NCBI RefSeq assembly: GCF_004010195.1
Contig: NC_057758.1
Coordinates: 3,189,881 to 3,253,880, forward strand
Origin: Chiloscyllium plagiosum
Lineage: Eukaryota
Direction: 5' to 3'
Length of the DNA stretch: 64,000 bases
Shown in pieces: positions 10,661 through 62,057 of the stretch (its first letter is position 1; every line of letters starts with the position of its first letter). The position numbers and the translations under genes are program-made. Under the pieces are notes generated by a model, which searched no databases, had not been told where the DNA came from, and was given only the letters and a program-made list of their open reading frames with translations.

Positions 10661-11554
10661 CTTAATTGATCATGCACTCGAATGAGTGCAGGGCAAGTTT
10701 ACAATATGCCATTATGGCAACATCTTAGTTACAGGATACTTTGTGTGCAGAATACGTTAGTATTTGTTCCAGACTGGATGGAATGATTTTAACAAATCAC
10801 CATAAAAGTTAAAAAATTAGAAGTGGGATTGCTGCCAATATTTCGTGCAGGCCCCATCCCTTCCAAATCATTTTTCCTGCAGCTGCCCTGTTAGTCAGTG
10901 AATGAGTTTTCTTATTCTTTGTCACTGGCAGCGTGCAGCCTTCAGACTGCCTGAGCCAAGTCATAATATAACGGCTTCAAACTTGGAGGCATTTCTTTCA
11001 GTCCCCAAAGGCGTCGCATCCGTCCTGAACTTGCCAGGGCCCATAAATCCACATGCTGGCCTCTACTCTGGGACTCAGCTCTGGGACTCGCAACCGCCGT
11101 GCCGACCTTGCCTTGGACTCACCTGGACTCATATCCCTACGTCGGCCTGACGAAGTACTCAACCTCCGGGACTGCCATGGGGACTTGCGAGCTTTACACC
11201 AGTCTGGCCTCTGATGGGCGTGCACTCACCTCACAGCACTGGCTTGGCATGTTTACTCACCTGTGGAACTGGCCACGTGACGATCTCCTATTTCTTTCGT
11301 TCATCTTCGAGTAAGAAAAAAAGAGATCAAATGAAAATGAGACGGCGCAGCAGTCCAATCCTGCCAATATTGCATATTTATGGAGACAAGTTTCTGCTTC
11401 ACTTTGGCGATGGACTGCTGCCAATATTTCGTGCAGGCCCCATCCCATCCAAATCATTTTCCCTTCACCTACACGTAAACTGTCCTGTTAGTCAGTGAAT
11501 GAGTAATCTATCGTTTCAGTTCCCATTTGACAATGTTGGTGTAGAGCAGTCGGA

Positions 11555-11887
11555 GAAAGTGAGGACTGCAGATGCTGGATATCAGAGCTGAAAATGAAAT
11601 GCCTCCAAGTTTGATGCCTGGTATGTTATGACTTACCTCAGGCAGTCTGAAGGCTGCAAGCTGCCAGAGACAAAGAATAAAGTACAAATACGTTTCAAAA
11701 GAAAACGTTTGATTTTTTTTATTTTTATGGTGATTTTTTAAATCATTCCATCCAGTCTAGATTTTAACCTACTGCGAATCCTCTTAGAAGGATGCCTTCC
11801 TTGAGGAAGCTCGCTTCCTCCCTCTACATCTCCTGCTCCTTGGATGCTGCCTGACCTGCTGCACTTTTTCAGCAACATATTATCAGC
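11555..11887 (-). mobile_element. Penelope-derived non-autonomous element A with captured internal sequence
   Basis: Termini match element B; flanked by GTAGAGCAGTCGGA at 11541-11554 and 11888-11901. Confidence 0.75.
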
Positions 11888-12536
11888 GTAGAGCAGTCGG
11901 ATCCAATTACAGAATCCCTCCCCAAAGCCATTTTGGAGAGCACATCCCTCACATGCATGTGCAATATTCTGTTAAAAACCTTCTCATGGTCCAGGCTGAT
12001 AAGGCAATCTTTCACGCTCTCTCTCGTGCACGCAGGCAATCATATCACTGAGTCATAAAGAAATTGTCCTGTTTGAAACAGCACTGTTGGTTCGGGACAA
12101 ACCACCAATCCCTGAGCACAGCTAATGCGGTTGAAAATAACCTTAAGCAGGACTGTTCAGTCTCACAATAATGTTGACAGCCAAATCCTAATTCCCCCCC
12201 CCCCCCCCCTCCCTCTTCCCCTTGTAGATGAGGGTGACGATGCCTTTTCTCATGTATTCACTCGTTGTAACTGCCAAAAGCATAGTGTCCAGCAGATCCC
12301 GGCCAATCAAGTCCAAAAGAGCAGACCATAAACATGCAGGTAATCACGGCTTCCAGGAGTTTTATTCTTTATAAAGGACTGGAGGGCCTTGGTCGGCTCA
12401 TCCAGAGTAATGACTGATCTACCTTCTCCCACATACTGTTGTCTCAGATCTCCGTAATTGATGGCAGGAACGACTGGGTAATCTCTCTGTCTATGGGCGT
12501 TGTGTCATGCAGTCTGACGTGGAAAGATTTGTTAAG

Positions 12537-12746
12537 GGAAAAAGTGAGGACTGCAGATGCTGGAGATCAGAGCTGAAAATGTGTTGCTGGAAAAGCGCAG
12601 CAGGTCAGGCAGCATCCAAGGAGCAGGGGAATCGACGTTTCGGGCATGTGCCCTTCTTCAGGGAGGGCTCATGCCCGAAACGTCGATTCTCCTGCTCCTT
12701 GGATGCTGCCTGACCTGCTGCGCTTTTCCAGCCACACAGTTTCAGC
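12537..12746 (-). mobile_element. Penelope-derived fold-back mini-element B (inverted arms plus 35-nt tail)
   Basis: Arms 12572-12654 and 12664-12746 are near-perfect reverse complements; flanks AAAGATTTGTTAAG (12523-12536) and AAGGATTTGTTAAG (12747-12760). Confidence 0.85.
12632..12663 (-). ncRNA. Minimal type I hammerhead ribozyme-like core
   Basis: Minus strand C-CUGAAGA-A-GGGC-ACAU-GCCC-GAAAC-GUC-GA: CUGANGA and GAAA boxes, 4-bp stem II, palindromic ACGU stem III; stem I weak in this copy. Confidence 0.6.
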
Positions 12747-14932
12747 AAGGATTTGTTAAGCCTCAGGATATCAGATGGAGATCACATTACCGAGCCATCT
12801 TCTTCCTTTTGGCTGCTGAGCACAGAGCATCTTTGCATCTCTGTCTGGAACAGAATCATTAAGTTGGGATGATGTGTTGAGTTTTCGGATAGGTTACGTC
12901 ATTGTATTGTCTTTTGATTCTGTTCTAATCAGGAATCTTGTAATTAAATTCTGTTTTGTTTAAAACGATAAAGATTGGTCAGCAGCATTCACTCCTGGAA
13001 CATTTGCATTGCACCTGCAAAAAACAAAGAGCAATTTTGACAATTTTGGGCACTTTCTTAAAATGCTGTGAGGGAATCTGGCCTGGAACATAACACAAGG
13101 AAGAGAATGATTATACAACATCTCCTGCGATTGCCGAATCAATGAGAAAGAATCTCAAATTGCAGAAGACACAGATGTGATGGTTGGGCGGGGGAGAACA
13201 TAAGCGTATGCAGATGAAAGAAAAATTGGAGAAAAACATGGAGAAATACAAGAAAAATCTAGAAAAAAACAACATCCCAGATACTGTAGAAGACTGGGAG
13301 AAATAATTGGAATTCCAGGGTAGCAAGAAACGTTTAAGAAGTCTATTCAACGGGAAAGAATGGGAAGAAAGCTGGAAAGTGAAATTAGATGTGGAAGACA
13401 AAACCAGACAAATCTCAGTGTGGAAAAACCTAATTGAAATAAGTGAACACATCGATTTTCAAAGATTATGTTTATTTAAGTAAAAAAAACCCAGAAAGAA
13501 TCAAATCTGCTCCTGCTAATAGAATTGCATATCACGGAAGAATTATACTAAAATGCAGGAAATCAAAGAAGAACCAATACGATCTGTGAAATATCAGCTT
13601 TAAGACAAATTATCACAAATGCTTTATAAAATACGTATGTGGAAAAGAAGGAAAGTCTGGAATACTTCGTGAAATCGATTCAGAGAGCGGGGAGAATAAT
13701 GCATAGAACACCCATGAAAGAGAAAAATATGTAGAGATCACCGCAAGTCAAGCAACTATAGTTAGCAACGAACAGGAACAATTCTAAACAACATAGAAAG
13801 GAACAAAAAATTGTTATGTCAGTGTAACCATTAGAAGTGACAGAGGAAGTATGAAACTATCAGCTGGTTGATTGTGCTTTACCTAAACAAAATTATAGGA
13901 ACTCGGCTTCCGAAAATAAAAACGCAATCGTACATTCTTCAAGGCAAAGTTCAGTGTGATTTGCATTGAAAGGCAATGGATATTCAAAGCTGTGAAGGAG
14001 AGTAGAAAATGACATTTAGCATTTTCCACAGTGCTTCAAAATATTTGAAACCGTCACGCAACAGAGACTGTGCAGACTAATGCAAATGCATGAGATTCAG
14101 TTTGGAACAATGCTTAAAACAACGAGCAGGGGTGGGCTTTTTTCCTTAAATAGAAATTGGAGGAATATTGTTTAAATATGAAATTTGTGTTATTGACCAG
14201 GAAATTGGCCTTAAAACTCTCATTAACTTCTTAGAGCTTATGAGAAGTGTTAACAATAGTTTAAACATAACTACAACGATCCCAGAACAGGAAACAGGGA
14301 AAATATGAATTATTGATAAAACGTCAATTATTCAAAGGATCAGTACATCAGCTTGCGCACATTATGATTATTACCGATGTTCTAAATGATCACGTGAGAG
14401 GAGAACATGCCTGGGCGGCCACTGAACTTAAAAAAGCCTATTACATGTGGAGGAATGGCAGTTGAACAGAGGACCGTGTAAGGACCGGTATTGACGGTTG
14501 AGAAAACACGATTGTGATAAAGGCATAATGATAATGTAGAGATAATAAAAACAAGTGAGTTGCTTCACCTACCTGGAATTGGTTGTAGAAGAAGACAAAA
14601 TCTATTTATTCATTATTAAGTAGTGTGATGAGAGTGTTCTTGTCAATCCAGTGTTTCTTAACCACCTCAAAATGTCCAATTAAATGTCTTAAATTAATGA
14701 AGTTCAAATGAAGCAACGGACCACCTCTGGATACTCAGAAGAAATGAAATGGAATATTTCATGCTCCCACATTGTTGTTAATCTTTAAAAAATTATTGAA
14801 ACATATTTTTAAACCGACTTTGTTCTTTAAAGCTGAAATTTGAGTAGCAATGAGAAGAGATTGACTATGCCTGAGCAATTGGTGCAAATTAGAAGATCAG
14901 GCACTGGTCCATTCGGGGGAAAACAACTCTGA

Positions 14933-17150
14933 AAAAACTATGGATATTGCAATCCTAAAACAAACATGGAAATTGCGCGGATATCTTAGCAGGTCTGGCA
15001 GCATCTGTGGAGATATCGCACAATTAATGCTTCGGGACCAGTAACCCTTCTTCAGAACTGATAGTAAGTAGGAAAAGGATTGTTTTATGCTGAGGATGGG
15101 GTGAAGACGAGGAAAAATAATATAGTGCTGGAGATAAAAAGGTAGTGAAAAGTATTTGGACAATGAAAGGGGTGCTTGAAGGTCATTCTGGTAGAGTGAA
15201 TAGTTGTTAATGGGGATTATTAGTGACTTTAGTTTGACAGTGATTGGTTGCAAACTATGCAATAACAAGGCCGGAGGAATACTTGTGGAAATGTGCTTAA
15301 GCCCACAAAGTGTTCTACTATATGTTAGTTAAAGATGCCTGCAGGTGTCCCAATTGAGAAATAAGGTGCTATTCTTCCAATTTACGTTGAGCCTCGCTGG
15401 AGCACTATAACAGCCTGAGACAGAGATGTTGGCCCAGAAACACGATCAGGCATTGAAATGGCCAGCAACAAGAAGCTGTGGGCATTTTTTGGCTGACAGA
15501 ATACAGGTTTTCCACAAAGAATTCAATTACTCTGCACGTCGTTTCTCCAGTGTAGCGGAGAATACATTCCGACCAGTGAATGCAGTAGATTAGGCTGAGT
15601 GAAGCGCATATGAAGCGTTGCCTCACGGGAAAGTATTTCTGAGACCTTCGATGCATTGGAAGAGGAGGAAATTAAAGGAGAAGTGGTCCAGGGTATCCCG
15701 GACGGATTGGTATTTGCAGACGGCTGACACTAGAGGAGGATGCAAGAATGTCTCTGGTGGTGGCAACCTGCTGGACGTGGCAGTCATGGCGAATAACGAT
15801 TCTCTTGGTTTGAATGCTCTTTGACTTGTAGGTGAGGACAAGGAGGATCCTATCGTTGTTGTAGAAGGGAAGAAAAGAGATAAGGCCTGAAGTGCTGGAG
15901 ATGGTTTGTACATGGCTCAGTGCCTTGTCAACTTCCGTCCAGATGATGTCTTGCTTGAGGAAGAAGTTTCACATTTTGTTGGCCTCTTCTCGATGTTGGC
16001 ACGATTAGAATAAATGCAACAGGGACGGAGGAAATGGGAGCAAGAACAGAGCCTTTACAAGAAGGAGGGTGTGACGTTATACAGTCATGGTAACTGGGGA
16101 GTCAGGGGGTCTGCAGTAGATTTTCTGTCCACTCTCTCCGTAAAAATGGAAACGGAGATGTCAAGAATGACCATGTATTGATGAGAGCAGAATCAAAATT
16201 GAAAGTGAAATCGATAAAGCTTTACTGGTTGGATACTATAGCGGGAATCAGCACCAATGATGCCAGGGAAAGATTTTTGATCAGCAGCCGTGTTTGGACT
16301 GGAACAAAGAATTTTCCACATAACCCATAAGGAGACAGGCACGGCTGTAACCCGTATTGCAAACCATCGCCAACCCGTCGACCTGAAGAAATTGAAAAAA
16401 AATTAAAAGAGTAATTGTTAATGATGAGGACACTCTATCAGACAAAGGAGGAGGATGGCAGAAGCGGAAGGGTCAGACCCTTCTTTTACACAAAAAGGAT
16501 TGGGGAACCCAGAAACTATCCTAATCGGGAATGGATGTGTAAAGGAATTGCATGTCCATGGTAAACAGGCAGTGGCGGGAAGCCGCGAACTGGAAATTCT
16601 GAAACTGATGTAAAGCACTAGTGTATTGATAGAAGTAAATGGGAATGAACTGCAAAGGGGAGAAACAAATCGATTCGACTTTGAAACAGATGTGTTCTTT
16701 CGAGCAAGAGTCGTCCAAAAGAACAGATATGTCTGGGAAATCCTGGTGTAAATTTACAAAAGGCAAAGAAGTCAACTGTGAAGGTTTGTGAGACTACATG
16801 ATTAGAGGCAGTGGAGCAGATACCAACAACTGAAATAAGTTTAGGGACAGTTGTAGACAAAATGCACTGATGTTCGATTGTAGTTTTTGAGTTGGATCTG
16901 AAAGCACGGCGATCAGTCTATTCAGAGGCAGATAGGTCTTAATTGGTATGGGGGGAGTGGCAGAGAAACTCAGACGACCAATACAAATTCGACAGGTCTG
17001 AATGAACCGGTCAGATGTATGTTAAACGTAAGGGGAGGTTCCAGGAGGATAGAGCGTTGGGAAAATGAGTAAAGCGGTCTGTGGGATGAAGAGAAGGTAC
17101 TGGTCCAAGGAAAAGGGCATAGAGGACAGTGTGTATATCAGGGTTCATCG
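14933..17150 (-). mobile_element. Decayed Penelope-like retroelement (RT + GIY-YIG + 3' pseudo-LTR)
   Basis: LFTMDMQFLYTSIP (RT), ACLLMGYVE, RFICASLSLIYCIHWSECILRYTGET (GIY-YIG); terminal repeat with hammerhead-like motif at 15026-15060. Confidence 0.85.
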
Positions 17151-17968: not shown

Positions 17969-18086
17969 GGAGAAAGTGAGGACTGCAGATGCTGGAGATC
18001 AACGTCAGAAGTGTGGTGCTGAAAAAGCAGAGCAGCATTCGAGGAGAAGGAGAACCAATGGTTCGGGCATAAGCCCGTCATCAGAA
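17969..18086 (-). mobile_element. Single-arm copy of the Penelope-derived mini-element family
   Basis: GGAGAAAGTGAGGACTGCAGATGCTGGAGATC terminus; minus strand CTGATGA-C-GGGC-TTAT-GCCC-GAAC. Confidence 0.75.
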
Positions 18087-18677
18087 AGTTAATCTGTAAA
18101 TGTGCATCAAAATATTAGAATAGAATGATTGCAATCTTTTAGGCCCTGACCGATTCTTAGCATCAGGTCACCCTCCATTTCAAGCATTCAGTTACTTGTC
18201 GATTGTGGAGGACAACATAGATTAAACAAAGTGATACTGACACACAGGGGAAGTCGATATAACTCAAAGAACAGTTGCCTAAATCTCATTATTCAAGGAA
18301 CTCACAGAGCAGCTTGCACCAGTGAATGCAGAGGCATGAAAGGTTTAAAACGTTGAGCACACTTTGAGATTTTCAAGACCAATTAAATGGAAAAGCATAG
18401 ATATTGCAGAAGGCATTGACATGAAGCAGGTTACAGAGATACATTGGATGTGAGGCCGCAGATGTTAGCCAAACATTGTGATACACTAATTCACACAAGA
18501 AAATCTTCCGTTTTCACTTTAGTAGGTCTATACTCGATTTTTCACAATTACATTTCGTGTTCCTATCAATGTACTATTTCGGCTTAACATAAGCACGCTT
18601 TCCTAATTATATTTATTAAGTAACTGCAACTACTGTGAGTATTGTGACTAATTAACTCCCTGAAGTTTTGATGCATG

Positions 18678-18763: not shown

Positions 18764-20239
18764 ATGGGGAAGCCTGCAATTCTGCTGGTGAAAGAGATAT
18801 ACTACCCGTTGCTTGCATCTGTTGCTGTTCCCGGTAAGTCGATTCATTTTTAACTGACATTTCCTCATTAATCTGTTCAGAGATGCTTCACACGCCACCG
18901 CAACAGGTCGGATCTCATCCAGGGTTTCTCTGTCCAGGGACAGGGGAACGAACATGACACCCCAATAGAACCTCGTGCGCCGTTACAATTTCTGTGTATT
19001 GATCCCTGCCTTCTCTCATCTTGTTAATTCAGTTAATTAAGTCAAGTCACCATTTTATCTTGTTGCAAAGTTCCATGGTATTAACTGTATGGACTACTGA
19101 TCAATCTTGCTTCACATCTCTGCATTCACTTCATCTTGCTGGTGTGATCATAATGTTCCTGAAACATTTTTGGAATGTTTTGTTATCGCATACAAACTGA
19201 TCTCAATGCCAGTTAATTAAATACTTTTCGTATGCTGTTAATCAGATGCATTGACTCACATAATTGTATATCATTTGAATCAAGAATTGAAATTTTATTC
19301 AGGTTTTTTTTCTCTCTCATAGGAAACTTGGCCACAATTCGGATTCTTTCACAAGGAAAGTGTGGCCTTTCCAACTGTGTCACTGTTTATATGTTCGCTA
19401 TGGCAACGACAGATCTACTGGTCCTAATCAACAATGTAATATTCTACCATATCTTCAGTTATCACTTTCCTTTTTCGTTCCTGTCCCATACTCCTCGTTG
19501 CAGAGTCATTATATATCGGACTGCTGTCACTCCCGATTTATCTGTTTGGTGCGTTGTCTCCTTCACATTTGACCGATTTGTAGTAATTTGCTGCCAGGGG
19601 TTTCAAGCAAAGTATTGTACCAAAAGAACGTCGATCACTCTAATAATGACTATGACAGTTGTGATCGTATTGAAGGAAATTCCAGTTTTGTTTGCTTATG
19701 AACCTCAGCAAATTATTAACGACTTGCCATGGGGCTGCCAGTCAAGTGAAGCTTTTTTTTCGTCTTCTGCAGGGATTGGATTTGTCTGGTTTTACAGTGC
19801 CACTGTGGTTTGGATTCCATTTGCTCTGATTGTCTTGTGCAATTCAATAATTATCAAACGTATTGTACAGGCAAATAGAACCCGCTTTGCTCTCCGGAGT
19901 TCCAAGTGTGGAAATCAATGTGATTCAGAAATGGAAAACCGCAGAAAGTCCATCATTTTATTATTCTCGATAACAGTAAGTTTTATTGTGCTCTGGTCGA
20001 CGGTTGCTGTGGGGTTGTGTGTTACCAAACTGACAAATAGCGTTTATTACCGTGGCAAGTTCACAAACCCTGATTTTATCGCCATGGAAATGGCAGATAT
20101 GTTGAAGTATTTTAGTTGTTTTCTAAACCCGTGTATTTATGCAGCGACACAGAGCAAATTTAGAGCAGAGCTGAAAAATATGGCAAGATTTTCGTGTATA
20201 TTATTTCAGAGACAGTTTTGTCAGAAAACTGTAAAATGA
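18764..20239 (+). CDS. Probable G-protein coupled receptor 139-like class A 7TM receptor; join(18764..18833,19323..20239), 328 aa
   Basis: Exon 1 MGKPAILLVKEIYYPLLASVAVP-G|gtaagt; acceptor tctctcatag|GA in phase 1 giving PGNLATIRILSQGKCGLS; MATTDLL (TM2), FTFDRF (TM3), PWGC (ECL2), EMENRRKSIILLF, NPCIY (TM7); no stops. Confidence 0.9.
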
Positions 20240-22805: not shown

Positions 22806-23999
22806 AAGATGTCAGTGAGGCTAGACCGAGGCAAGTAACTTCCCACAGGCAGTGGGTTTCGAAGAAATGTTGCAGTCTTTTGATATGTGATATCTTTCAT
22901 TCCGTTTTTGGTTTTTAGGATAGCCTCATCTACTTTGCTTCATGCAAAATTTTGTGGAAGAAAGCGTATCAAGAACACTCTGATAATTAGAAACAAACGT
23001 TAAATGTGGTAGTATTCCTGCTTATCATTATGGCGGTAGAGATGTTGCTACATTTCCATGTAGATTTAGTTTTAATTCTCTCCGGGCAGCTCACGTGGTA
23101 ATCTGGATGGTGTTACCTTTGAGGTTCTGTTTCAGATATTTTTGTGCTGGCTACGATCGTGGAGCATGTGCATAATGCTCGAGAGTCATGTAGATGTCGA
23201 AAGGATTTGTTAAGTATTGGTTCGATTGTGACCAGGTAAATGTCTGGAAATGCAGTGACAAGAGTGATAAATGCTCGTGTTCACTGAGAGAGCAGCACAT
23301 GGTAGAGCATTAAATTGTGGATCTAAATGCGCTCGATTTTGCAAGTGTGTTCAAATAGTTTCATTAACCAAAACAAAATGGACAAGTGGTGAACCTCCTC
23401 TGTTTTTGTGATGTAAACGTCGATATTAATCGCTCTCAGGTCACGTTTGTATTTAATCCCTCCACGACATTCTAACCTGGACTCATCTCCTTCTCAACTG
23501 TTCAATGTTTTCACATGCAGGTCCATTTAAGTGATCACAAGATGCTGATTTTTTTTTTGAATATCTACCTGTTATCTGCGTTGGGTTGTGTTGGATTTTC
23601 ACTTCCTGCTGTAACTTCTCGGTTGAAGCACCTAAGCTGTGAATTATGCTGTGAACTGAACAAAGTTCCCGCAGCAACTGAAGTAAACACTTAACCTAAT
23701 TAATTCAGTATTTAATCAATTAAACTGATATTTTCTAGTTTCAATTGAAATTTGTGGCAATAAAGTAGCCTATCGAATGGTAAAAGACTGAGGGGAGTTC
23801 TAGTTCGTCGAACATTATCACACATGGTGTGGAGAAAATTTCAATGTATCTCTCTAGTCCTCCAGTTTCTCAGTCCGCACAAACCTTCCACTCTCCTTAT
23901 TTCCTCCATTTACTCTGTGTATACCGAAAACTTGTAAATAATTTAAACGTCCTTTAAAAACTACTGAGCAGCAAAACTAACCGGAAACCAAATGAAATA

Positions 24000-24158
24000 T
24001 GAATGCAGTAAATCAGAAACAAATACTGAAGTAGCTGGGAAAGCTCAGCAGTATCTATGCAGAGAAATCAGAGTTTACATTTCCGGACGACTGAAGGGTC
24101 ACCTGACTGAAACTTTAACTTCAATTTCTTTCCACAGATGCTGCTTGCCCTGCTGACT
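24000..24158. mobile_element. Decayed Penelope-derived fold-back element
   Basis: Left arm CTCAGCAG..ATCT..GCAGAGAAATCAGAGTT mirrored by AACTTCAATTTCTTTCCACAGATGCTGC..CCTGCTGA; CTGAAGGGTC..GACTGAAAC remnant. Confidence 0.55.
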
Positions 24159-24764
24159 GTAAGTCTAAATGTACCAGATTTTGCAAGCGGTTCATTAACC
24201 ACAGCAGAAAAGGACAAGTGGTTGAACTCCTCTGTTTTTTGTGATTTAATGATCGGTGATACTGGCTCTCAGTTCGTGGTGGCAATCGAATCCCTGCAAT
24301 CTGAACTTCTTCTGTCCCATTGGTTTGTCCTTCCATTCTGCCATCTCAATGGTGTTTCTTCAGGGTTATGGGGCTTCTGTGTGGCAAGGACAAGTCTTCT
24401 TCTCCATCGAACTCACTCAGTCAGGTCTCATTGAATATTCCTGTTCACACATTTACAGCCATTTAAAGATTATTCGCCTTGCTCTGTTCACAACCAAATT
24501 TGACAACTTCACATTTATAATAAATTATCTGGAATGCATTTGAACCGTTATTCTGTCTGATTGGGCGTTAATGTTTCATCATGATGGTATGCGTTTCCCC
24601 TCATGTATGTATGCATTTTAATCTATACTCTTAATCGACACAATATTAATTTAGACTACACATGTTGTATGTTTCAGCCTGTTAATCTTTGCAAGATTCC
24701 ATGTTTCTCTGTATACATGCACGTATAAGTTCCTGTACTTATTGTTTACCTTGTAAAGATTTAT

Positions 24765-25795: not shown

Positions 25796-27301
25796 CAAAA
25801 CAATGGGAATCTGGAATGCCTTACTGTTGTTGTAGCGTAGCCTTTATGCGCATTCAAGACCGAGGCGACCATATTTCTTTTTTAATAAAATCAGACTTGG
25901 ATTCAAAGTTTATGTTGGAAAAATAAGTAAAATGAAACTGAGGGTTATTAGATAATCGCGATTTCATAGTTGGGGGGCTGAATGGTCATCTTCTCATCCT
26001 ACATCGTATGATATTTTGGTATAAACTTATGTCACACGATAATGTGTTATCTGCTGCCTGGTGATTGGACTATTCAAAGAGAAGAGTTTTCTGTGAGGTG
26101 CTCAGCAGGCAATCATTTCTGATGTAAAGGTCCACCAGAAAATCAAGTTGTAAAAGAACCAGAACAAGGTAAGAAAGAAAACAACAATGTGAGAGTGACT
26201 CTTCTTCACATGCAGCAACATCCAATTTAGGAGCAAAAAGTTTCTGTTGAACTGAGCTCAGCTTTGCCGACAGAGACTCTTTGTGGCGATTTTCCTCTGG
26301 GCCATAGGGTGCTGCTCCGAATCTTTCCAGGGCCCTGACACGATACATGTCACGTCTTGTCTCTGTATTTCCCACTTGTCAATGCCTTGGCTCTGACACA
26401 GCAAGTAGCAGCCATGATAGAGCGATATCACTGTCATTTCTAATCCAATGTACAACTGCGAAATGCCGAACCGAAGAGGGACACTTCGGAATAGAATTGA
26501 ATTAAAGAAAGAAACTGCTCTGTGCAAGGAAATTCACATGGACTAGGTCTTCTTTCTAGAGGTCAACGCTGCCTGTGACAGTGATAAAGGCCTTTCACAA
26601 CCACATGCGATTATGGGAGTAATGATCGCTATTCTTCCACCACTGTGCAAGTTCAGCGACAACGGTTTGAATGATACAATCAGTTAACAGAAACTGTAAA
26701 CTTCAAAAAATGCACATGTACATCGAAAATCTTTCTTTTAGAAGTCGAATTATATTGATATCTCTGTCAATTCTGAAAGTCGCTTCCATAATAAATTCGG
26801 AAGATAATTGAGGAAATGATTTATTCCATTGGCGAACGTCAAGAGGACTTCTTTTTTACACAGAGTGTGATTCTTGTATGAAATGAAATAGCAGTGCAAG
26901 TGCAGGATGCAGACACAACATTGAAAAGACATTTAAATCAGTATATCCAAATGATACGTTTAGGCAGATATGGACCAAACTCAGGCAAGTGGACCGAATT
27001 TAATTTGGGACTGTGTTCGTCGTGACGAGTTGGACCAAAGAATCTGTGTCATGCTGTGTGACTCTATTACTTTATTAAAAGGTTGACAAACATAGCAATA
27101 CAATGTAAGGTTCATCCAGCACAAGCAAAGTATGTTCCTCTCATTGGTCCATATGTTACAAACTCCGAGAACCTTTTGCAGTGCAAAGCAACACAACCCA
27201 TCCATAGTGAAAATTCATAATAGAACATAGAACAGTACAGCACAGAACAGGCCCTTCAACCCACGATGTTGTGCCGACCACTGATCCTCATGTATGCACC
27301 C

Positions 27302-30035
27302 TCAAATTTCTGTGACCATATGTATGTGGAGGAGTCTCTTAAATGTCCCCAATAAACCTGCCTCCACAACTACTGCTGGCAACGTACTCCATGCTCTCAC
27401 AACTCTGCGTGTAAAGAACCCGCCTCTGACATCCCCTCTATACTTTCCTCCAACCAGCTTCAAACTATGACCCCTCGTGTTAGTCATTTCTGCCCTGGGA
27501 AATAGTCTCTGGCAATCGACTCTATCTATGCTTCTTATTACCTTGTATACCTCAAATAGGTCCCCTCTTCTCCTCCTTTTCTCCAATGAAAAAAGTCCGA
27601 GCTCAGTCAACCTCTCCTTATAAGATAAGACCTCCAGCCCAGGCAGCATCCTGGTAAACCTCCTCTGAACCCGCTCCAAAGCATCCACATCTTTCTTATA
27701 ATAGGGCGACCAGAACTGGAAGCAGTATTCCAAGTGCGGTCTAACAAAAGTTTTATAGAGCTGCAACAAGATCTCACGACTCTTAAACTCAATATCCCTG
27801 TTAATGGAAGCCAAAACACCATATGCTTTCTTAACAACCCTGTCCACTTGGGTGGCCATTTTAAGGGATCTATGCACCTGCACCCCAAGATCCCTTTGTT
27901 CCTCCACACTACCAAGAATCCTATCCTTAATCCTGTATTCAGCTTACAAAATGCATCACCTCACATTTATCCAGGTTGAACTCCATCTGCCACCTCTCAG
28001 CCCATCTCTGCATCCTGTCAGTGTCCCGCTACAGCCTACAGCAGCCCTCTATACTGTCAATGACACCTCCAACCTTTGTGTCATCTGCAAACTTGCTGAC
28101 CCATACTTCAATCCCCTCATCCAAGTCATTAATAAAATTTACAAACAATAGAGGCCCAAGGACAGAGCCCTGTGGAACACCACTCACCACAAACGTCCAG
28201 ACAGAATATTTTCCTTCTACTACCACTCGCTGTCTTCTGTTGGCCAGCCAATTCTATATCCAGACAGCTATGTACCCCTGAATCCCATTCCTCCTGACTT
28301 TCTGAATGAGCCTACCATGGGGAACCTTATCAAATGCCATGCTAAAGTCCATATACACCACATTCACAGCTCGACCCTCATCAAATTTTCTAGTCACATC
28401 CTCAAAGGACTCGATAAGGTTTGTGAGGCATGACCTTCCCCTCACAAAGCCGTGTTGACTGCACTTAATCAAACCATGCTCTTCCAGATGGTCATAAACC
28501 TTATCCCTCAGAATCCTTTCTAACACCTTGCAGACGACAGACGTGAGGCTTACTGGTCTGTAATTGCCGGGGATTTCCCCATTTCCTTTCTTGAAGAGAG
28601 GAATTACATTTGCCTCTCTCCAGTCCTCAGGTACGACTCCAGTGGAGAGTGAGGATGCAAAGATCTTCGCAAGTGGCGAAGCAATTGCATTTCTCGCTTC
28701 CCAAAGCAGCCGATGACAAATCTAGTCCGGGCCTGGCGACTTGTCAATCGTAATGTTTGACAAAATTTTCAGCACATCAGCTTCCTCTATCTCTATCCAT
28801 TTCAGCATGCACACCTCCTCTTCAAAGGTTCCATTCACTACAAAGTTCGTTTCTTTCGTAAAGACAGAACCAAAAAAACTCATTTAGGCCTTCCCCTACC
28901 TCCTCAGACACCACACAAAAATTCCCTATGCTACCCCTGATCGGGCCTACTCTTTCTTTGACCATTCTCTGATTCCTCACATAAGTGTAAAATGCCTTTG
29001 TGTTCTCCCTAATCCGTTTGGCCAAGCCTTTCTCTTGCCCCCTCCTGGCTCTCCTCAGACAATTTTTAAGCGCCTCCCTTGCCTGCCTGTAATCCTGTAG
29101 AGCTGAGCTTGACCCTAGCTTCCTCCACCTTACGTAAGCTGCCTTTTTCCTTTTGACGAGAAGCTCCACTGCTCTGGTCATCCAAGCTTCCTTTATCTTA
29201 CCACTTCTTGCATGTCTCAGAGGGACATATTTATTCATCACTTGCAACAACTTTTCCTAAAACACAGTCTCCACATGTCTATAGTGCCTTTACCATGGAA
29301 CAACTGCTCCCAGTCCATGTTTCCTAACTCATGTCGAATCGCATCATATTTTCATCTTCCCCAATTAAATATCCTCCCATTTTGCCTAATCCTCTCCTTC
29401 TCCATAGCTATGTAGAATGTGAGGCAGTTGTGGTCACTATCACCAAAATGCTCTCCCACCACAAGATCTGATACCTGCCTCTGTTCATTGCCGAGCACCA
29501 AGTCTAGAATGGTCTCTCCCCTCGTCGGCCTGTCAACGTACTGAGTTAGGAAACCCTCCTGAACACACCTTACAAAAACAGTTCCATTCAAATTTTCTGC
29601 TCGAAGGAGGTTCTAATCAATATTGGGAAAGTTAAAGTCACCCATTACAACAACACTACTACGTCCACACTTTTCCAAAATCTGCCGAGCTATGCTTTCT
29701 TCCATCTCTCTGCTGCTATTGGGGGGCCTGTAGTAAACCCCTAAAGAGGTGAATGCTCCCTTGCTGTTCCTAATTTCCACTCATACTGACTCGGTAGGCA
29801 GATCTTCCTCGACAATGGAAGCTTCTGTAGCTGTGATACCCTCTCTGATTAGTAGTGCTACACCCCCTCCTATTTTCCCCCTCTCTATTCTTTTTAAATG
29901 CTCTAAACCCTGGAACATCCAGCAACCATTCCTGCCCCTGAGAAACCCATGTCTCTGTTATGGCCACAACATCGTAGCACCAGTACTGATCCATGCTCTA
30001 AGTTCGTCACTTTTATTCCTGATACTCTTTGCGTT
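27302..30035 (-). pseudogene. CR1 ORF2 (APE endonuclease + reverse transcriptase), frameshifted
   Basis: DVVAITETW, ILDLVLGNE, SDHN, GRSCLTNL, YMDFSMAFDKVPH, GVPQGSVLGPLLF, KFADDTK, LYKTFVRPHLEYC. Confidence 0.92.
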
Positions 30036-30158
30036 AAAGCAAACACACTTCCTTGCCAGGAAAATCCTTCCCACTAGCTGGTCTACCTATTGCTACTGCC
30101 TCATCTGCATCAACTCTCATCTCCGGTGTACAGCTCAGGTTCCCACGCCCCTGCCATA

Positions 30159-31092
30159 CTAGATTAAACCGTCTCGAACTACTCGTGGAAAACTTCCACC
30201 CAGGACATTGGTCCCCTTCCAATTCAGATGCAACCAGTCCTTCTTGTACAGGTCCCACCTTCCCCAGAAAGCATCCCAATTATCTACATATCTGAAGCCC
30301 TCCCTCCAACACCAGCTGCGCAGCCACGTATTAAGCTGCGCCCTCTCCCTGTTCCTCGCCTCGCTATCTCTTGGCACCAGTAGTAAACTAGAGAACACTA
30401 CTCTGTTCGTCCTGCTTTGCAGTTTCCATCCTAACTCCCTGAAATCACTTTTTATATCTTCGATCCTTTTCCTGGCTATATCATTAGTGCCAATATGTAA
30501 CAGGATTTCTGGCTGTTCGCCCTCCCCTTTTAGAACCTTATACACCAGATCGGAGACGTCCCGGACCCTGGCACCAGGGAGGCAACTTACCTTCCGGGAA
30601 TCCCGATCCTGACCACAAAATCTCCTGTCAATTCCCCTAACTATCGAGTCCCCTATCACGAGTACTTTTCTATTCTTCCCCCTTCCCTTCTTTGCCACAG
30701 TGTCAGGCTCAGTGCCAGAGAACTGACTGCTATGGCTTTCCTCTGGTAGGTCATCCCCTCAGCAGTATCCAAAACGGTATACGTATTGCTGAGGGGAATG
30801 TCCACAGGGGACCTCTGCACTGTCTGACTGTCCCCTTTCCTCCCCCTAACTGTAACCCATTTATCCTTGTCCTGAGCCTTAGGAGTGACCAACTCCCGGT
30901 AACACATCTCAATTACCCCCTCAGCCTCCGAATGATCCATAGTTCATCCAGCTCCAGCTCCAATTCCCTAACACGGTTTTCAAGGAGCTGGAGTTGGGTG
31001 CACTTCCCACAGATGTAGCCAGCGGAGACGTGTGCCTTGTCTTCCACCTGCCACATTCTGCAGGAGGAGCAAGCAACTGCCCTAGCATCCAT
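30159..31092 (-). pseudogene. CR1 ORF1 (zinc finger, coiled coil, SGNH/GDSL esterase), frameshifted
   Basis: MDARAVACSSCRMW...YICGKCTQLQLLENRVRELELELDEL; VIGDSIVRG, HIGTNDI, DWLHLN. Confidence 0.9.
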
Positions 31093-43740: not shown

Positions 43741-44204
43741 ATATATTTCTAGAAACGTTTGCTATCTGTTTTTATATTCTGATCTGGTTTACTCTCATTT
43801 TCTATCTTATCTTTTTTTAATAACATTTTCCTTGCAACGACCTTTACAGATTTCAGAATTCTCTAGCTTCCCACAAATCTTGGTGAGGATGTTTGCATTA
43901 ACTTTCAATTTGATACCAACCTTTATTTCCTCAATTAGCTATGGGTAATTATCCCTTTATCTGCAGTTCTTACCTTTAAGTGGTGTATATATTTGTTCAA
44001 CGCTGTGAACATCACATTGAAAATACTCTACTGTACCTCAGTTGTTATACCATGTCGTTTTTGCTCCAACTTGACCTTAGCCATCTCGTCTCTTATCCCA
44101 GTATGATCTCATTTTTGCGATTAAAATGCATTGGTATTGGATTGTCCTTCTCACCCTCCAGCTGTGTCATTAATTCAATTGTACTATGTGCACGGATCAC
44201 AGAA

Positions 44205-44298
44205 ACAATGAATGGCATATGCCCAAAACATCGACAGTCCGGGTTCTCGGATGCTGCCTGAACTGCTGTGCTTTTTCCAGTGCAAAGTGTTTAGACTT
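44205..44298 (+). mobile_element. Decayed arm of the Penelope-derived mini-element
   Basis: GGCATATGCCCAAAACATCGA..CTCGGATGCTGCCTGAACTGCTGTGCTTTTTCCAG. Confidence 0.7.
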
Positions 44299-46029
44299 TG
44301 TACTACGATCGCATCATCCGAGAGGTCCATAACGTTGAGATTATTAATTATTATTGTATCATTACGCAGAATAAGATGTAGGGTACATTGTTTCCTTGAA
44401 GGTTCTATTGTGCATTGTTTAAGAACATTATTGAATGCATTTCAGTGAACTCCTCCGCAAAGCTTCCATGATGGACTTGGTTCGAGCAATCAATGCATCG
44501 ATTGAAATTCTCATGATAATTGCCGCAACATTTTTTGCATCTTTGATGTATTTCCTTGTTTAATGCCTGTCCGCCATTATGTTATTATTTAGTGTTCTAT
44601 GGACTCGCCTATCAGCGATATTCCTCACTTCATGGATATTATTTCCATCCACAGTGATTCAATCTTTTTCTTCGCAGAACCCATGCCGTGTCTGACTACC
44701 CTTCGATGTCATCCTTAAATATCAGACGTAAACGACCTCTATTTCCTTCCAGTCTGTCCTTCCGTATGACTTGATATCCCTTAATATTTAACTCCCAGCC
44801 CTGACCACTCTCCAACAACGTCTGTGCAAAGGCCACTGAACCATATCCATTCACGATCATTTGTGATGTTAACTGATTTACTGTGTTACGAATGTTGCAA
44901 GGTAAAATGGCCTTGTGCTGGTTTTTATACTATCTTTTTGAATCCTAACTACTTCATCAGTTGAGCCTTCACTTTTATGCATACCCTGTTGTTCTTTCAC
45001 TATTTCGCTTCCAGTCAGTTTCGTAATAGATACAACTGCTTTTTACATTTTTATTTCAAATCTTGATTCTCTTTGTTCCCTTTGAACACTCACCCACTCT
45101 AGCCAACTCAGAACCTACACTTAGGTTTCAATCCCTTTGCCAAACTAGTTTCAAGTCCTCCCAGCTGTACAGGTAAAACCACCAGCAAGGATATTGGATC
45201 AATCAATCTTTGGTTGAAGATCATCCCTATTGAACAGGTCGTATCTTCCTCAAAGATGAGACAAATCATTCAGAAATCTGAAGCCCTCCCTCGTGAATCA
45301 CTCCTCCAGGCAGGCATTCAGCTGCCTAAATTACCAATTCCTAACTTCCATAATGCGTGGCAAAAGTAGCGATGCGAATATTACTACGTTTGATATTCTG
45401 GCTTTCAATTTGGCTCCTAAAACCGTAACTCCATCCTTCAGGACCTCAACCCTCTTGTTATTTATGTCATTGGCACCGGGGACAATGGTATGGTTCTCTC
45501 CCCGCTCCGCAAATGCCCTGAAGTCAATCGGTAACTTGCAGAAGCTTTGCACCACTGAGGCATCACACAGTACTGGTTTTATTGATGTGGCCACAGAAGG
45601 ACCTCTCAGTTTATATAAGAATTAACTTTCCTATCACTGCAGCTCGAACCGCCTACTTCTGCCCACTCTGTGCAACTGAGCGTTCTGAAATGGTATCCAT
45701 TGTACTTGGGCTGCAATTTCCTCAGGCAGTATTACCATCACGAGAACTCAACACAGAGTACAGTTTAGTTACTTGTATGGCCTAAAGGGAAACCTGCTCC
45801 ACTTGCCTCACCACTTGTTTGCATGCGATAGTCACCCACTTCCCATAGTCTTGCATACTTTAACACCATGGAGTAACCACAAACATGTACGCCCTGTCCA
45901 CGTAATTCTCTTTCTAATGGATGCACCTCGGTGCCTCAACACCTCGTTCAAGCTTCATAGTCTGGCGCTAATTTCAAGCATCCAAGAACTTTGACATATT
46001 CCATGTGGAGCATACAGCGCCTCGGACTT

Positions 46030-51929: not shown

Positions 51930-53325
51930 GGGCATTTTGGGAGTTAAGATAACCCTGGTAATTATAGACCAGTGACCCTTACTTCGGTTGTGGGTAAAGT
52001 GTTGGAAAAGGTTAAAAGATAAAGGAGTTAGAATCATTTAGAAAGGAATAAGTTGATTCGAGATAGTCAACACGATTTTGTGAAGGGGAGGTCATGCCTC
52101 ATAAACCCTATTGAGATCGCTGAGAAGGTGTCCAAACAGGTGGATAAAGGTTAAGTGGTTGACATGGTGGATATGAATTTCGGTAGGATGTTTGATAAGG
52201 TTCCAGACGGTCGGCTATTGCACAAAATGGAGTTTGGAATTTATGATGATTTAGCGGTTTGGAGCAGAAATTGACTAACTGAAGGAAGACAGAGAGTATT
52301 GGTTCATGGGACAAGTTCAACCTGGTGTTTAGCTTCTAGTGGTGTACCGCAAGAATCTGTTTTGGGTTCACCGTTGTTTGTAATGACTATAAGTGACCTG
52401 GATGAGGTCGTAGAAGGATGGGTTAGCAAATTTGCAGATGACACTATGGTCGGTAAAGTTGTGCATTGTACTGAAGGATGATGCAGGCTACCGAGGGTTA
52501 TAGATAAGCTGCAGAGCTGGCTGAGACGTGGCAAATGGAGTTTAATGTGGTAAAGTGTGACATTATTCACCTTGGAAAGAATAGTAGGAATACAGAGTAC
52601 TGGGCTAGTTGCAAGATTTTTGGTAGTGTAGATGAGCAGAGAGATATCGCTGTCCATGTGCGCAAATCGCAAACATTTGCCACCCAGGTTGATAGGATTG
52701 TTAAGAAGGCAAACATTGTTTTCTCTTTTATTAGTAGAGGGATTGAGTTTCGGAACCATGAGGTCAGGCTGCAGCTCTACAAAACTCTAGAGCGACTGCA
52801 CTAAGAGTATTACCGACAGTTCTATCACTATATTATAGAAAGGCTGTGGAAGTATTGGAAAGAGTTCAGAGCAGATTTACGAGGAAGTTTGCTGGTATGA
52901 AAGGCAGGTCTTATGAGGAAAGACTGAGGAACGTGAGACTATTTTCGTGAGAGAAAAGAGGTTTGAGAGGTGACTTAATTGTGACATACAAAATAATCAG
53001 AGGGATAGATAGGCTGTACAGTGGACCCTTTTTCCTCGGATGGTGATGGCTAGCATGAGGGAACATAGCTTTAAGTTGAGTGTTTATAGATATAGGACAG
53101 GTGTCAGAAGTAGTTTCTTTACTCAGAGAGTAGTAGAGGCGTGGAACTCATTGACTACAACAGGAGTAGACCGGCTAACTTTCAGGACATTTAACTAGAC
53201 ATTGGATAGACATGTCGATGAAAATCAAATAGTGTAAGCTAGATTGGCTTTGGATTGGTTTCATAAAACGGAGCAACATCGAAGCCAATGGGCCTGTACT
53301 GCGCTGTATTTAATATGTTCTCTGT
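51930..53325 (+). mobile_element. CR1 fragment (RT to 3' tail)
   Basis: GVPQESVLGSPLF, SKFADDT, MEFNVVKC, LQLYKTL; GGCCTGTACTGCGCTGTA tail. Confidence 0.9.
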
Positions 53326-53329
53326 TCTG

Positions 53330-54790
53330 TCTTGATAAATCTCCTATGCACCCTTTCTAAAACATCAACATCATCCCTACAATGGGACGACCAGAATTGG
53401 ACACAATGCACCAAGTGCATTTCAACCAGGGTTTTATAGAGCTGGAGCAAATCCTCGCGACTCTTAAGCTCAGTCCACTCATTATTGAAAGCTAACGCAC
53501 CATATGCCTTCTTCACAACCCTATCAACTTGGTTGGCAGCTTTGAGGGCTCTATGTATGTGGTCGCCAAGATCCCACCTTTTCTCCACAATGCCAGGAAT
53601 CCTGCATTTAACGATGTATTCAGCATTCAACTTCCACATTCCAAAATGAATCATTTCACATTTACTCAGGCTGAACTTCACCTGCCAATTCTCAGTCCAA
53701 CCTGTCAATGCCGGGTTGTAGCCTGCAACAATCGCCAACACTATCTGCAACACTAACGACCTTTATGCCATTGGCAAAATTACTTACCCTCCTTCTTCAT
53801 CCAAGTCATTTATAAAAACTACAAAGAGCACAGCCTGTTAAGTAGATCCAAGCGGGACACCATTGGTCACCGAAATCCAGGCGTATTACTTGCCATTCAT
53901 TACCACATACTGTCTTCTTTCGGCCCGCTAATTCTGTATGTAGCCAGGGAAATTTCCCTGTATTACATGGCTCCCCATCTTTCTGAATTGTTCCCAAGTT
54001 TTCCTTTCCTGACCTTTTTGAATAAGGGCACAAAGTTCGCTGCTCTCCAGGGTTCCAGGACCTCACCCGTAGCTAACAATAAAGCAAATGCATCAAACAA
54101 GGAACCTACAATTTCTTCTCTGGCCTCTTCCAGTGTTCTTGGATATATCAGCTAGGGACGAATAGATTTATTCAACTTTCATTCATTGTAACACGTCCGA
54201 CCCCTTCTCTGCTTTGATGTGCACTGTCTGCAAGATATCAGTACTAACTGTCCAAAGTTTCAAAGTCTTCATGCCTTTCTCCACGGGAAAGACAGATGTG
54301 AAGTATTCAGCGAGGACCTCCCCCTTCTCCTATAGTTCGACAGATACATGACCACTTTGGGCATTCAGAAGTTATATTCCCTCTCGAGTTATCCCTTTTC
54401 CTTCAGTATATTTAAAATATATCTTTAGATTGACCCTAATGGTCTCAGCCAAATGTACCTCTTCCTCCCTTTTCATCCTCCTGATTTCTTTCTTCGGTAT
54501 AAACTCCGGCGTTCCCTACATAACCTCCAGGGATACACCTGGTCCCAGGCATCCTTCTTTGTTCCGTTCAAAACCTCAATATCTCTTGTAATCCAATGTC
54601 CACTATTGCTGCCAACATTTCCCTTCACCCTCGCAGGTAAATATAGACATTGTACTCTGGCTATTTCACTTTTAATTGCTTTACACTTGCTGAAGATCCC
54701 TTTGGTTACGAATATAATATTGGAACCAACTCTTGGAATCTCCTGCCTAATTCCATCAAAATTTGCCTTGCCCCAATTTCGAACTTGTGA
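53330..54790 (-). mobile_element. CR1 ORF2 fragments
   Basis: WQVKFSLSKCEMIHFG, LLQLYKTLV in ORF 53310..53753. Confidence 0.85.
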
Positions 54791-57234: not shown

Positions 57235-60200
57235 TTATTCAAAGCCGGGTTTAATGAGCTGTGCTCCATATGTGATTCAAACTGTCCACCATTACGCCTC
57301 AATAAAATACACTTCATTCATACAATACAGCTGAAGTATAAGAAGAAAAGTAATTAGCATAACGTTAACACTGTTGGAATTGTTAGAAAAACAACGTGCT
57401 ACCTAAAGACCAATCATCACCTGTTGCAATGGTTAAAAATCCTACAAAGACACCTGAGGTAAGGCAATTTAGCAAAACAAGTACGATTCTCATGTTCTGT
57501 CTGTCTGCAAAACAGAAAAAAGAAACAAGCTGCCCCTTTTGGGTTTTAGTAGGAAATCTCGCTACCTAAGACTGCCCTCCAGTAGAACTCTCGCTTTTAG
57601 CTATGAAGTAGCAGAAACTTTCTCACGAAGTGAAAACAAAGCTGAAAACCTTCATTGGTCTGCATGGCTCCTGACCCCCTAAACGCATGCTTCTTTTGTC
57701 CAATTTTAATGAAAACACACCCGATATAACTGCAACCTGTTTATTAACTGCCCGTGTGAAGCAGATATCCTGGCACCAGTGTGGCCACACAACTCTGCCA
57801 GACAAACAGGACACAACATATCACTCTTAAAGGCGCACTATCGTCATATATCCCTTTAAAACATCATATATTAATATACAAAGTTCGCCTCATTTTCAAA
57901 GTCATTATTCCCACACTATTAGTATTCGACATTACGTAAAAGTGTGTGTATGTGTATCGAGTATTAACTCTGCACATGTTAATAATACAATCAATCGTCA
58001 ATAAAAGAAATAGTCAAACAGCCAATTATGCAATTCTTTTCAGTTTGCTTCTTGCACCTCGAACACTTCCATTTTCTTTCATCTAAGTGATGATGAAGTA
58101 TCGCCAATTACATCTCTTGTCCTGCCAGCTTTATAATTTATACACTGAATGGATGTAATAAAATAACTCGTCTAAACGGTCTAGTGTTTATCCTTAAAGT
58201 TATCCAAAGAATTTGGGGGGTTCTCATCAGTATACACAATTATCTCAGTTACATAACTGGCAACATAAATGTTGAAAAGTTGTAACGGTATTATCAAATT
58301 CAAGATCTCTTTCTCAATGATGGAATACTTCTTTTGAATAACATTCAACTTTCTGGAACAAATTCTGTATACAGTCGTCGTCGTCTTGTGAGTGTACAGC
58401 ACAGACACCACACTCAAATCATTCCGATCAATGAGCACCTTTACTGACTTTGCACAATTTTTGTTGCAAACACTGGGCCGGTGGTCAACACAGCTTTTGG
58501 GATTGAAATTTCTTCTATCACTCTTCAGTCCACTGAAATTTTCTGCACTTCTTCAAAACGTCAGTCAGTTGAACAACAATGCTGCTAAAACTGGTATGAA
58601 TGATCAGCAAAAAGCACTCAGGTCCAGGAATGGCAGTAACTCGCTCTGTGTTAACACTATGAGAAACTTGACAGCGAATGTGCAAACTCCATGCAGGCAG
58701 TCGCCCGAGGCTGAGAATCGAACCTGGGACTTTGGTGCTGGGAGGCAACAGTGCTAACTGCTGAACCACCATGCTGCCCTGTGTCACTTCCATCTCTTGT
58801 ACCAATACTAATTTAAATGGACTGAATTTAGTTGCAGCATTAGGTGTATTGCTAAATACTAAAATTACAAATGCAATTCCTTTCGAGCAATCCTTTGGAT
58901 ACTCTTGACTATGGACATTCAACATGTCCTTTGAAGATTGATGTCACGGTGCAAATGTATCCCGTGATTCTGAATGGTACGAAATTGGTTTAAGTCGCTT
59001 TAATTCTGAGTTATCCATAATTTCCTTGAATAACTTTGTTGTAAAATTAGACTGTTGATTGTATTGTATTTGGTGAGTTGTCTGTATCTGTTTAAAAATG
59101 GTACCTCCTCTGCCGTCCTTTGAGCAATTTCAACAATCTCGTGGACATATTCATTATCGTGAACAAATATGTATTCCTACTTCTCAGTTTAGGGAAATCT
59201 CCCACGCAATTCATTAACAATCGTGTAAAAGTTTCCTCAAAAGCTGGAATCGGTGTTCAGGGTGATGGTTGTTCACTGACTGAAATGTTTTCATTATTTC
59301 ACAGAGTTGACGTGTCCAGCAAAATTCAAGCACAGCTATATGCAATCTCTTCCAACGAAAATATGTTTTATATTTTGTCTTGTGCTTTCCATACTCCCAT
59401 ATGACCTCGTGCTGTTTAGTAATATGCTGTCCACGACACCTCCCTTCTGTAACCCACGGGAAGTACAACTTGCAGACATTCTGCTCATTGTTCATCCACC
59501 TGAAAATGTAATGATCTCCGTTGGCTCAAGACTCATTTTACGAAAATAAAATTCTGAGGTACACTCACAGTTTTCTTCTCAATCTGCTTTTGGATCCAAC
59601 AGCTTCATATTTTGCTTCTTCTGTCGTAGTTCAGCTAACTTCCCCGAACTAAGAATGTCCACTTTGACCTTCACTTGTTCTTGTTTTTCTTCTTAACCAC
59701 TTGATCATACAGAGCCACTGATAATTGAAAGTCAATTGTCTTATCTTCACTTTTTGAATTTCCCTCCCATTTTAGCATACGGCTTTGTGACTCTGCTTAC
59801 ACGCAGTCAGGAAGAGTTCCACGATATATCTCCTGTAACATTTCAATTGTCCGATTTTCCATTGGCTTTTCAATCACAATCGGCATCACTACAATCTGTG
59901 ATCTATTTATGTCATTATTTACGTTTAACTGTATGTCTTGAACAGAGAATTGTTTTATTATTCTTACAATTGCATAATCGTTTTTCATCTTAATTTCCAA
60001 ACTTGCTTTATTCAATGGAAGGCTCCTCTATCACCAGAATTCCACATACTACAACCTTTTATGGAACATTCTTTCTGAATTGCATCTCTCTTCATCTCTC
60101 ACTTTCAATGATTGACTTGCTCCCATATCACTCTTTCAAACCCAATCCTCCTGGCACAAATGATTAAAACCTAACCCAGACAGGTAAATTCCTTGAAGAG

Positions 60201-61500: not shown

Positions 61501-61509
61501 TTTCCTCGG

Positions 61510-62052
61510 AAAGAAGGCAAAGGAAGGACCGCAGAAAGTGCGATGTGCATAAAAGGAAACTTATCACGTGGATTCACGGCCTTGTTTCCAGGGAGCCCTA
61601 TCTGTGGGGAAGCACATTGTGCATAGGTAGTATGACACTAACTTACATTGGGAATTCGCAGCCTTGTTTCCAGGGCATAGTATCAGAGGGACGGGCACGG
61701 AACAGGATGAATAAAAAGCCTGACTTAACACAGGGGCTCGTGGCCTTGCTTCCAGGGAGCAGACACAATGTGGAAAGCACATGGAACACCGTGAACATTA
61801 AAGCTAAAATGCCTTCGTGATTATGTTTCCTGGGAGCGAAGTCAGACGGAGGAGCACAGGCGGTAAGCATAAAAAAACTAACATGCATTGGGGATTTACA
61901 GCAATTTGTCTAGGGATTGGAGTCGGAGAGTTGAGGATATAGAGCCATGAGTGTAAAAAGTAGCCTACCTCGAAGATTCACGGTCTTGTTTCCAGTGAGT
62001 GGAGTCTGAGGGATGAGTACAGAGAGCACGATGAGTATAAAATATGTTTACA
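61510..62052. repeat. Degenerate ~82-bp minisatellite, about 6.5 units
   Basis: CTTGTTTCCA-like anchors at 61581, 61663, 61745, 61822, 61904, 61985. Confidence 0.8.
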
Positions 62053-62057
62053 AAAAG

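Follow-up and report, generated by a model that had tools for sequence, protein, structure and literature searches.

A fold-back insertion with a hammerhead core in Chiloscyllium plagiosum, probably an ordinary by-product of Penelope-type retrotransposition

Results

The window, by which we mean the whole 64,000-nucleotide stretch of Chiloscyllium plagiosum DNA analysed here, is vertebrate intergenic DNA that holds tRNA-headed SINEs, RT remnants and one GPCR open reading frame. The latter is an intact, single-exon, rhodopsin-family frame of 340 codons (19217-20239, plus strand; PF00001, E 1e-17). Decayed LINEs with RT and an SGNH/esterase-type ORF1 lie at 27300-30760 (minus strand), 52000-53800 and 62100-63500, an RT-RNase H remnant lies at 58184-58552 (minus strand), and 82-bp-spaced direct repeats together with a 150-nt inverted pair, 404 nt apart, occupy 61494-62620. 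We compared the stretch at 85% likeness with four of 24 public sequencing runs, which come from three species (organisms A, B and C). The fold-back insertion at the centre of this report, copy B, sits between two other repeats (12200-12400 and 12764-13007) with depths of thousands to tens of thousands; the first of these resembles a LINE RT piece by eye and gave no Pfam match.

Table 1. Features of copy B and of its relatives in the window
Feature	Position	Strand	Basis or remark
Copy B, left target-site duplication	12523..12536	.	14 bp, last 11 exact
Copy B, tail: 35 nt between the family's two 3' ends (putative RT start sites)	12537..12571	-	sequence comparison, loose ends
Copy B, left arm: end module in minus-strand sense	12572..12654	-	arm alignment
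Copy B, core of a minimal hammerhead, with CUGANGA, GAAAC and GUC, one added A and a stem II of 4 bp	12634..12661	-	helix I down to 1 pair
Copy B, fold-back centre	12655..12664	.	family letters, pairing
Copy B, right arm: module in plus-strand sense, core-internal start, untailed end	12664..12746	+	
Copy B, right target-site duplication	12747..12760	.	pairs with 12523-12536
Copy A, in the subfamily of B	11552..11887	.	composite inside duplication 11541-11551 / 11888-11898
Copy C, one tailed arm, decayed core	17969..18087	-	module alignment
Copy D, one untailed arm, decayed core	44187..44297	+	8-bp duplication 44179-44186 / 44298-44305

Copy B consists of two head-to-head copies of the end module, from hammerhead to tail, of an abundant repeat (Table 1). 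Its arms are complementary at 79 of 83 positions across a 9-nt spacer, the 35-nt tail is present on one side only, and 13 of the 14 positions of the flanking duplication are identical. A duplication of at least 14 bp with at most one mismatch, bounding a 210-bp interval, occurs at one of 63,500 window positions, that of copy B, and a looser search (slack of 5 nt either way, an exact 11-mer) yields three clusters in the window, copy B and two others. The hairpin folds at -164 kcal/mol (z -20.4), a value equalled by none of 200 shuffles. At its centre, bases 12662-12664 fit both arms in family letters, a 3-nt overlap in which copy B carries one substitution, and the same bases pair with 12654-12656 across a 5-nt loop. 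The left arm retains at most three bases ahead of the hammerhead core, and the right arm starts within the core.

With its conserved boxes and stem II present, the core (read from 12661 to 12634) is the sole exact match in the window to a minimal-hammerhead descriptor that matched nothing in any of six shuffles; with one mismatch allowed, the window holds six matches, one of them copy C, against zero to three in shuffles. Helix I has one pair among its first six positions, even in family letters it contains an internal mismatch, and the right arm has no hammerhead core. In the folded RNA of copy B the pair probability of stem II is about zero across the ensemble, and forcing the stem incurs a penalty of 29.4 kcal/mol; of the 4-5-bp helix I and the freedom to fold that mark an active minimal hammerhead, copy B has neither. 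Among the aligned copies, stem II is paired in 15 of 16 cells, invariant and with no compensatory change, in an alignment where only four rows carry letters. We consider the ribozyme of copy B likely inert, its helix I having been lost at the junction and its core being predicted to lie buried in the hairpin, and we propose that the motif is a passenger from the terminal repeat of the parent element.

Three further copies lie in the window. The arms of copy B, the ends of copy A, and copies C and D can all be aligned to a single module that has two 3' ends with 35 nt between them, and each of the four copies has its own layout, one of them being a palindrome. Target duplications vary in length, from 8 bp in copy D through 11-14 bp in copy A to the 14 bp of copy B, and none is convincing around copy C. 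A profile made from the window copies recovered its own training copies (both B arms, the A arm, C and D) with E values of 4e-19 or lower and, more weakly, two pieces from a second family (in three rows, with E from 1e-5 to 0.14); in five shuffles it gave no match better than E 0.12. A loop II base common to both B arms is absent from C and D, and copy A and both B arms carry the same subfamily letters, so that their common end base is the inner end of the subfamily.

A first-pass annotation made from the letters had described in copy B two inverted arms of about 83 bp, an unpaired one-sided extension of 35 nt (12537-12571), a 14-bp flanking duplication with one mismatch and a minus-strand hammerhead core with an extra base, and had noted the same 35-nt tail and end base in copy A; each of these observations is borne out by the comparisons above. 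In the Rfam search that it named, no hammerhead family was among the 11 matches for copy B up to E 5, all of which were sub-threshold hairpin matches.

Copy A is a composite made up, in order, of the tail plus 10 nt, inverted nearby DNA, a 69-nt high-copy segment (11760-11828) and a 59-nt untailed arm; its module ends are thus 45 and 59 nt long with foreign DNA between them. The flanking duplication is exact over 11 bp and reaches 14 bp if the next three shared bases are counted. The captured piece (11588-11761) is an inverted copy, 89-90% identical, of 10768-11001, which lies 550-780 bp upstream, and it is joined to the element ends by short overlaps; we propose that the capture was a local template switch or a repair fill-in during insertion. 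Inside the source region, 10826-10907 is a direct, 82%-identical copy of 11412-11504. Because this patch is absent from the captured piece, with which an organism B contig (run X9) agrees apart from one gap, it seems to have arrived later, in organism A. The 69-nt segment has about one-tenth of the depth of the end module in all three species and contains a short frame after an ATG, which we take to resemble the N-terminus of shark Penelope ORFs; three protein searches with this frame, a query too short for sensitivity, returned no matches.

Pieces of the second hammerhead-end family are also present in the window. An older fold-back with a B-like layout lies at 23998-24165 (local score 51 against a shuffle maximum of 39), and at 14950-15085 (minus strand) is a single arm, one copy, in which a pyrimidine run and CAG immediately precede helix I, an arrangement reminiscent of Drosophila virilis Penelope, where an intron end was mapped to helix I in the available text of Cervera and De la Pena (2014; PMC4209133).

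In the public runs, the summed depth over copy B, which is not a copy number, reaches 2-5 million for organisms A and B, as against 0.4-1.5 million for organism C. Unique flank has a depth of about 5-15 in most bins of runs X5 and X9, the depth of the repeat family is about 100,000 times that of the flank in the three species, and the family is plainly very abundant. Loose ends gather at 12537, the end of the tail, in all four runs (562, 386, 943 and 175 records), and at 12580-12581 in three of the four (188, 504 and 76 records, with none listed for X5), the position, slightly interior to the inner end, from which the letters of copy B's subfamily differ; loose ends of the inner end gather near 12572-12581. 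In a consensus drawn from 825, 1,376 and 235 DNA contigs, letters upstream of the core stay shared over about 5-8 nt before they break up, and most family copies seem to begin just before the core, a clustering read from consensus cells rather than counted. Upstream of the core, 321 RNA reads run on into a shared longer sequence (agreement 0.57), which suggests that some copies belong to a longer parent, and the high-copy segment of copy A also points to one.

The arms are joined in many ways at other loci. Among the 15 joints listed, beyond which there are 518 more, left arms cut at 12566, 12592, 12593, 12595, 12601 and 12617 are found fused to a right arm with its start at the core. Contigs that span the centre register of copy B itself number 80, 106 and 48 in X5, X9 and X15, about 2-3% of the DNA family depth at 12649, and the register is also spanned by 47 RNA reads, of which 40 share one letter at 12663; the centre of copy B is therefore not unique. 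Near-identical centres vary, with a 2-nt insertion behind 12663 in nine of 81 reads and one contig with seven gap letters across the centre.

The insertion at this locus appears to be shared with a second species and older than the split of the two organisms, because organism B contigs join both flanks to the element: one passes from unique left flank into 25 letters of the tail (under the 31-letter bridging rule), and 31 letters of the right arm continue through the duplication into the right flank at a depth of 2.9. The flanks of copy B differ by about 5-10% between organism B and the window, and the public runs compared list no empty site. The RNA run gave 3,516 records on the stretch out of 12.96 million, 97% of the 3,516 running into unlike sequence; the unique flank had no depth, no RNA record was listed for the copy B locus, and there was no pile-up of read beginnings or ends, a weak test in this poly-A single-cell library.

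Discussion

Copy B has the published Penelope signature in miniature, as one old and probably inert copy among very many. Insertions of EN+ Penelope elements are recognised by an inverted, 5'-truncated, head-to-head copy, a one-sided tail of 30-40 nt bounded by two family-wide 3' ends, target duplications of variable length and a minimal hammerhead motif in the terminal repeat, and copy B displays all four, with a tail of 35 nt. The Penelope-like origin that the first-pass annotation had suggested is thus supported by the letters of the locus, because the inverted copy, tail and duplication occur together with a minimal hammerhead in which A9 is followed by one additional base and a palindromic remnant of helix III is retained. 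Membership of copy B's family in the Penelope group is assigned entirely on such non-coding signatures: a Pfam search of all 69 window ORFs of at least 100 aa found no PLE domain and no RT or GIY-YIG tied to the family, a six-frame motif scan of the window gave scattered single motifs with no PLE cluster, GIY-YIG, MG..P or YxDD, and the tailed arm of copy B has a stop in two of three frames. Exact tail patterns occurred at no locus in viral, prokaryote and metagenome collections, as expected of a vertebrate repeat, and the literature searched, with Repbase, Dfam and most subscription papers outside its scope, gave no description of the family.

Our preferred account, which we hold with somewhat more than even confidence, is that copy B was made in one insertion event by a Penelope-like RT/GIY-YIG protein that laid down two copies of the module, and that it has likely been inert since. 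The protein would nick both target strands 11-14 nt apart, and each nick would prime a cDNA inside the element RNA (twin priming). The outer start site would give the tailed arm of about 126 nt, and the inner site, 35 nt upstream, the untailed arm of 83 nt; both cDNAs would end at the hammerhead's front edge or slightly ahead of it, the probable beginning of the template RNA, and the two cDNA ends would be joined through the 3-nt overlap at the core. What the sequences themselves display is the anatomy of the insertion, two ends common to the whole family, differing layouts and centres, the overlap and the loss of helix I; the enzyme, the priming and the start of the RNA are inferred. The stereotyped ends pointed out by the first-pass annotation have a published explanation, in which RT starts at two internal sites (Frangieh et al., 2024; PMC11167929). 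Copy A speaks for two cDNAs made independently, because in it the same two ends enclose foreign DNA. Twin priming is the simplest account of copy B and, for this family in vivo, a proposal; against it, the loop II base shared by the B arms fits self-copying equally well, and the centre register of copy B recurs at other loci.

These two observations lead to a serious, if rather improbable, rival that keeps the same origin and would yield the same copy B by a self-primed join, in which a cDNA started at the tail end would fold back on the core stem and copy itself, the second arm being cut or resolved 35 nt short. The centre of copy B, with its three paired bases and 5-nt loop, is exactly such a hairpin, the loop II base is found in both B arms and not in C or D, recurrence of the centre would be accounted for, and self-priming has been proposed for the palindromic junctions of PLE inverted repeats in the available text of Arkhipova et al. 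(2013; PMC3846280). The second arm, however, would have to stop at the inner end used by copies D and A, which two start sites explain directly, and many of the listed joints have other centres and no such symmetry. The 3-bp stem is weak, and a 25-nt strand ending at 12664, in copy B's substituted letters, folds into stem II instead; nor is the foreign DNA between the ends of copy A simply given by one self-copying strand.

The recurrent centre also bears on a reading in which the palindrome would be a non-autonomous element in its own right, with a fold-back master that is transcribed and recopied whole by the Penelope protein into many 210-bp daughters. We regard this as unlikely, and less likely than either twin priming or self-priming. 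The same-register centre in contigs of three species and the one letter shared at 12663 by most of the RNA reads that cross it are what such daughters would leave, and non-autonomous PLE derivatives exist (Craig et al., 2021; PMC8557442, in the text available). Yet the centre accounts for only a small share of the family depth, near-identical centres differ by a few bases, one of four window copies is palindromic, the RT would need to unwind an 83-bp duplex, and a microhomology hotspot would yield the same recurrence. We give a similarly low weight to a reading in which the core acts as a fold-back signal in DNA, its 3-bp cDNA stem priming or joining the second arm and the palindrome then being recopied by the Penelope protein as a non-autonomous, dsRNA-templated element in the three related species. 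A short non-autonomous RNA of a single module may exist, because the upstream ends seem gathered 5-8 nt before the core and not random.

The first-pass annotation had gone further and taken the 210-bp unit to be a non-autonomous, ribozyme-containing element (retrozyme/mini-PLE) mobilised by Penelope RT and GIY-YIG; a retrozyme, in which the hammerhead would cut an RNA that circularises and is reverse transcribed, we find very improbable. The core letters and stem II are intact on one arm, and a relationship between animal retrozymes and PLE pLTRs has been described (Li et al., 2026; bioRxiv 10.64898/2026.07.22.740005, in the text available). Against the fold-back as a mobile unit or a retrozyme stand the four layouts and many centres, the lack of any head-to-tail repeat of the unit, the single core with its lost helix I and sequestered fold, element ends that fall downstream of the cut site by 62 and 97 nt, upstream ends that lie before the core and not at the cut site, and, as a weak test, the absence of a begin or end pile-up among the RNA reads; as copy B is no head-to-tail tandem with a hammerhead in each unit, we reject the retrozyme reading for it. 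Least credible is a MITE-like DNA element or a hairpin gene of microRNA type, for which one may cite the long inverted arms and the Rfam matches to mir-680 (35 bits) and mir-3127 (33.9 bits); this reading is rejected in both forms, the scores lying far under the gathering thresholds of 104 and 82 bits, and the one-sided tail, variable 8-14-bp duplications and single-arm relatives being unlike a MITE with a short fixed duplication and inverted repeats at both termini.

Copy B is thus probably an ordinary by-product of Penelope-type insertion, with mobility of its own as a unit unsupported. Its family, with two fixed 3' ends, gathered upstream ends and a recurrent 3-nt junction, offers material on whether the inverted repeats of Penelope elements arise by twin priming or by self-priming, a step left open in the available text of the PLE papers. 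If same-centre palindromes should prove to be inherited as units, they would constitute an unusual hairpin-templated non-autonomous retroelement.

Comparison with known systems

An inverted copy with a 30-40-nt tail and a target duplication is an already published signature of PLEs, and we draw the comparisons below from the accessible text of the papers cited. PLE insertions have been described with an inverted pLTR, a one-sided tail of 31 bp and target-site duplications of 8-10 bp, with unrelated DNA captured between solo pLTRs, and with palindromes at inverted junctions that were read as self-priming (Arkhipova et al., 2013; PMC3846280); a 30-40-bp tail with an inverted truncated copy is reported by Craig et al. 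(2021; PMC8557442), and the same insertion signature by Schostak et al. (2008; PMC2377424) and in PMC8969392. The copies described here resemble EN+ PLE units in their head-to-head inverted copy, one-sided 30-40-nt tail, duplication and palindromic junction, and copy A also in the foreign DNA between solo ends. Copy B differs from those units in that no ORF lies between its arms and that it measures only 210 bp, and the duplications here, at 11-14 bp, are longer than the 8-10 bp of the PLE report (PMC3846280).

The minimal hammerheads of PLEs, reviewed in PMC6765202 and PMC6155905, occur on opposite strands 100-700 bp apart, most solo motifs having been attributed to truncated PLEs, and are inactive as monomers (Cervera and De la Pena, 2014; PMC4209133). 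Like those of metazoan PLEs, the core of copy B has the conserved boxes, an extra base between positions 9 and 10.1, the G10.1-C11.1 pair, a palindromic 15.2-16.2 without loop III, and an opposite-strand arrangement; its stem II has 4 bp, and its helix I is reduced to one pair where 4-5 bp are typical. Animal non-LTR retrozymes likewise are non-coding, contain a type I hammerhead, are related to PLEs and measure a few hundred bases. Retrozymes, however, are head-to-tail tandems (Cervera and De la Pena, 2020; PMC7229834; Li et al., 2026), every unit carrying its own hammerhead, and they produce circular RNAs, whereas copy B is head-to-head with one blocked core.

A mechanistic parallel to the proposed twin priming in copy B is Poseidon of Anolis carolinensis, for which both strands were nicked and extended in vitro, the tail corresponded to the gap between two internal RT start sites, insertion was independent of hammerhead activity, and RNA ends were absent from the cut site (Frangieh et al., 2024; PMC11167929); the joining of two cDNAs is not demonstrated in the accessible text of that work. 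The Poseidon ORF starts inside the hammerhead, whereas the tailed arm of copy B is interrupted by a stop in two of its three frames. Both Poseidon and the B family have two 3' ends, one tail apart, downstream of the hammerhead: in the B family they lie 82 and 117 nt past the point at which stem II begins, and the Poseidon site lies 111-118 nt inside an ORF whose start is at stem II.
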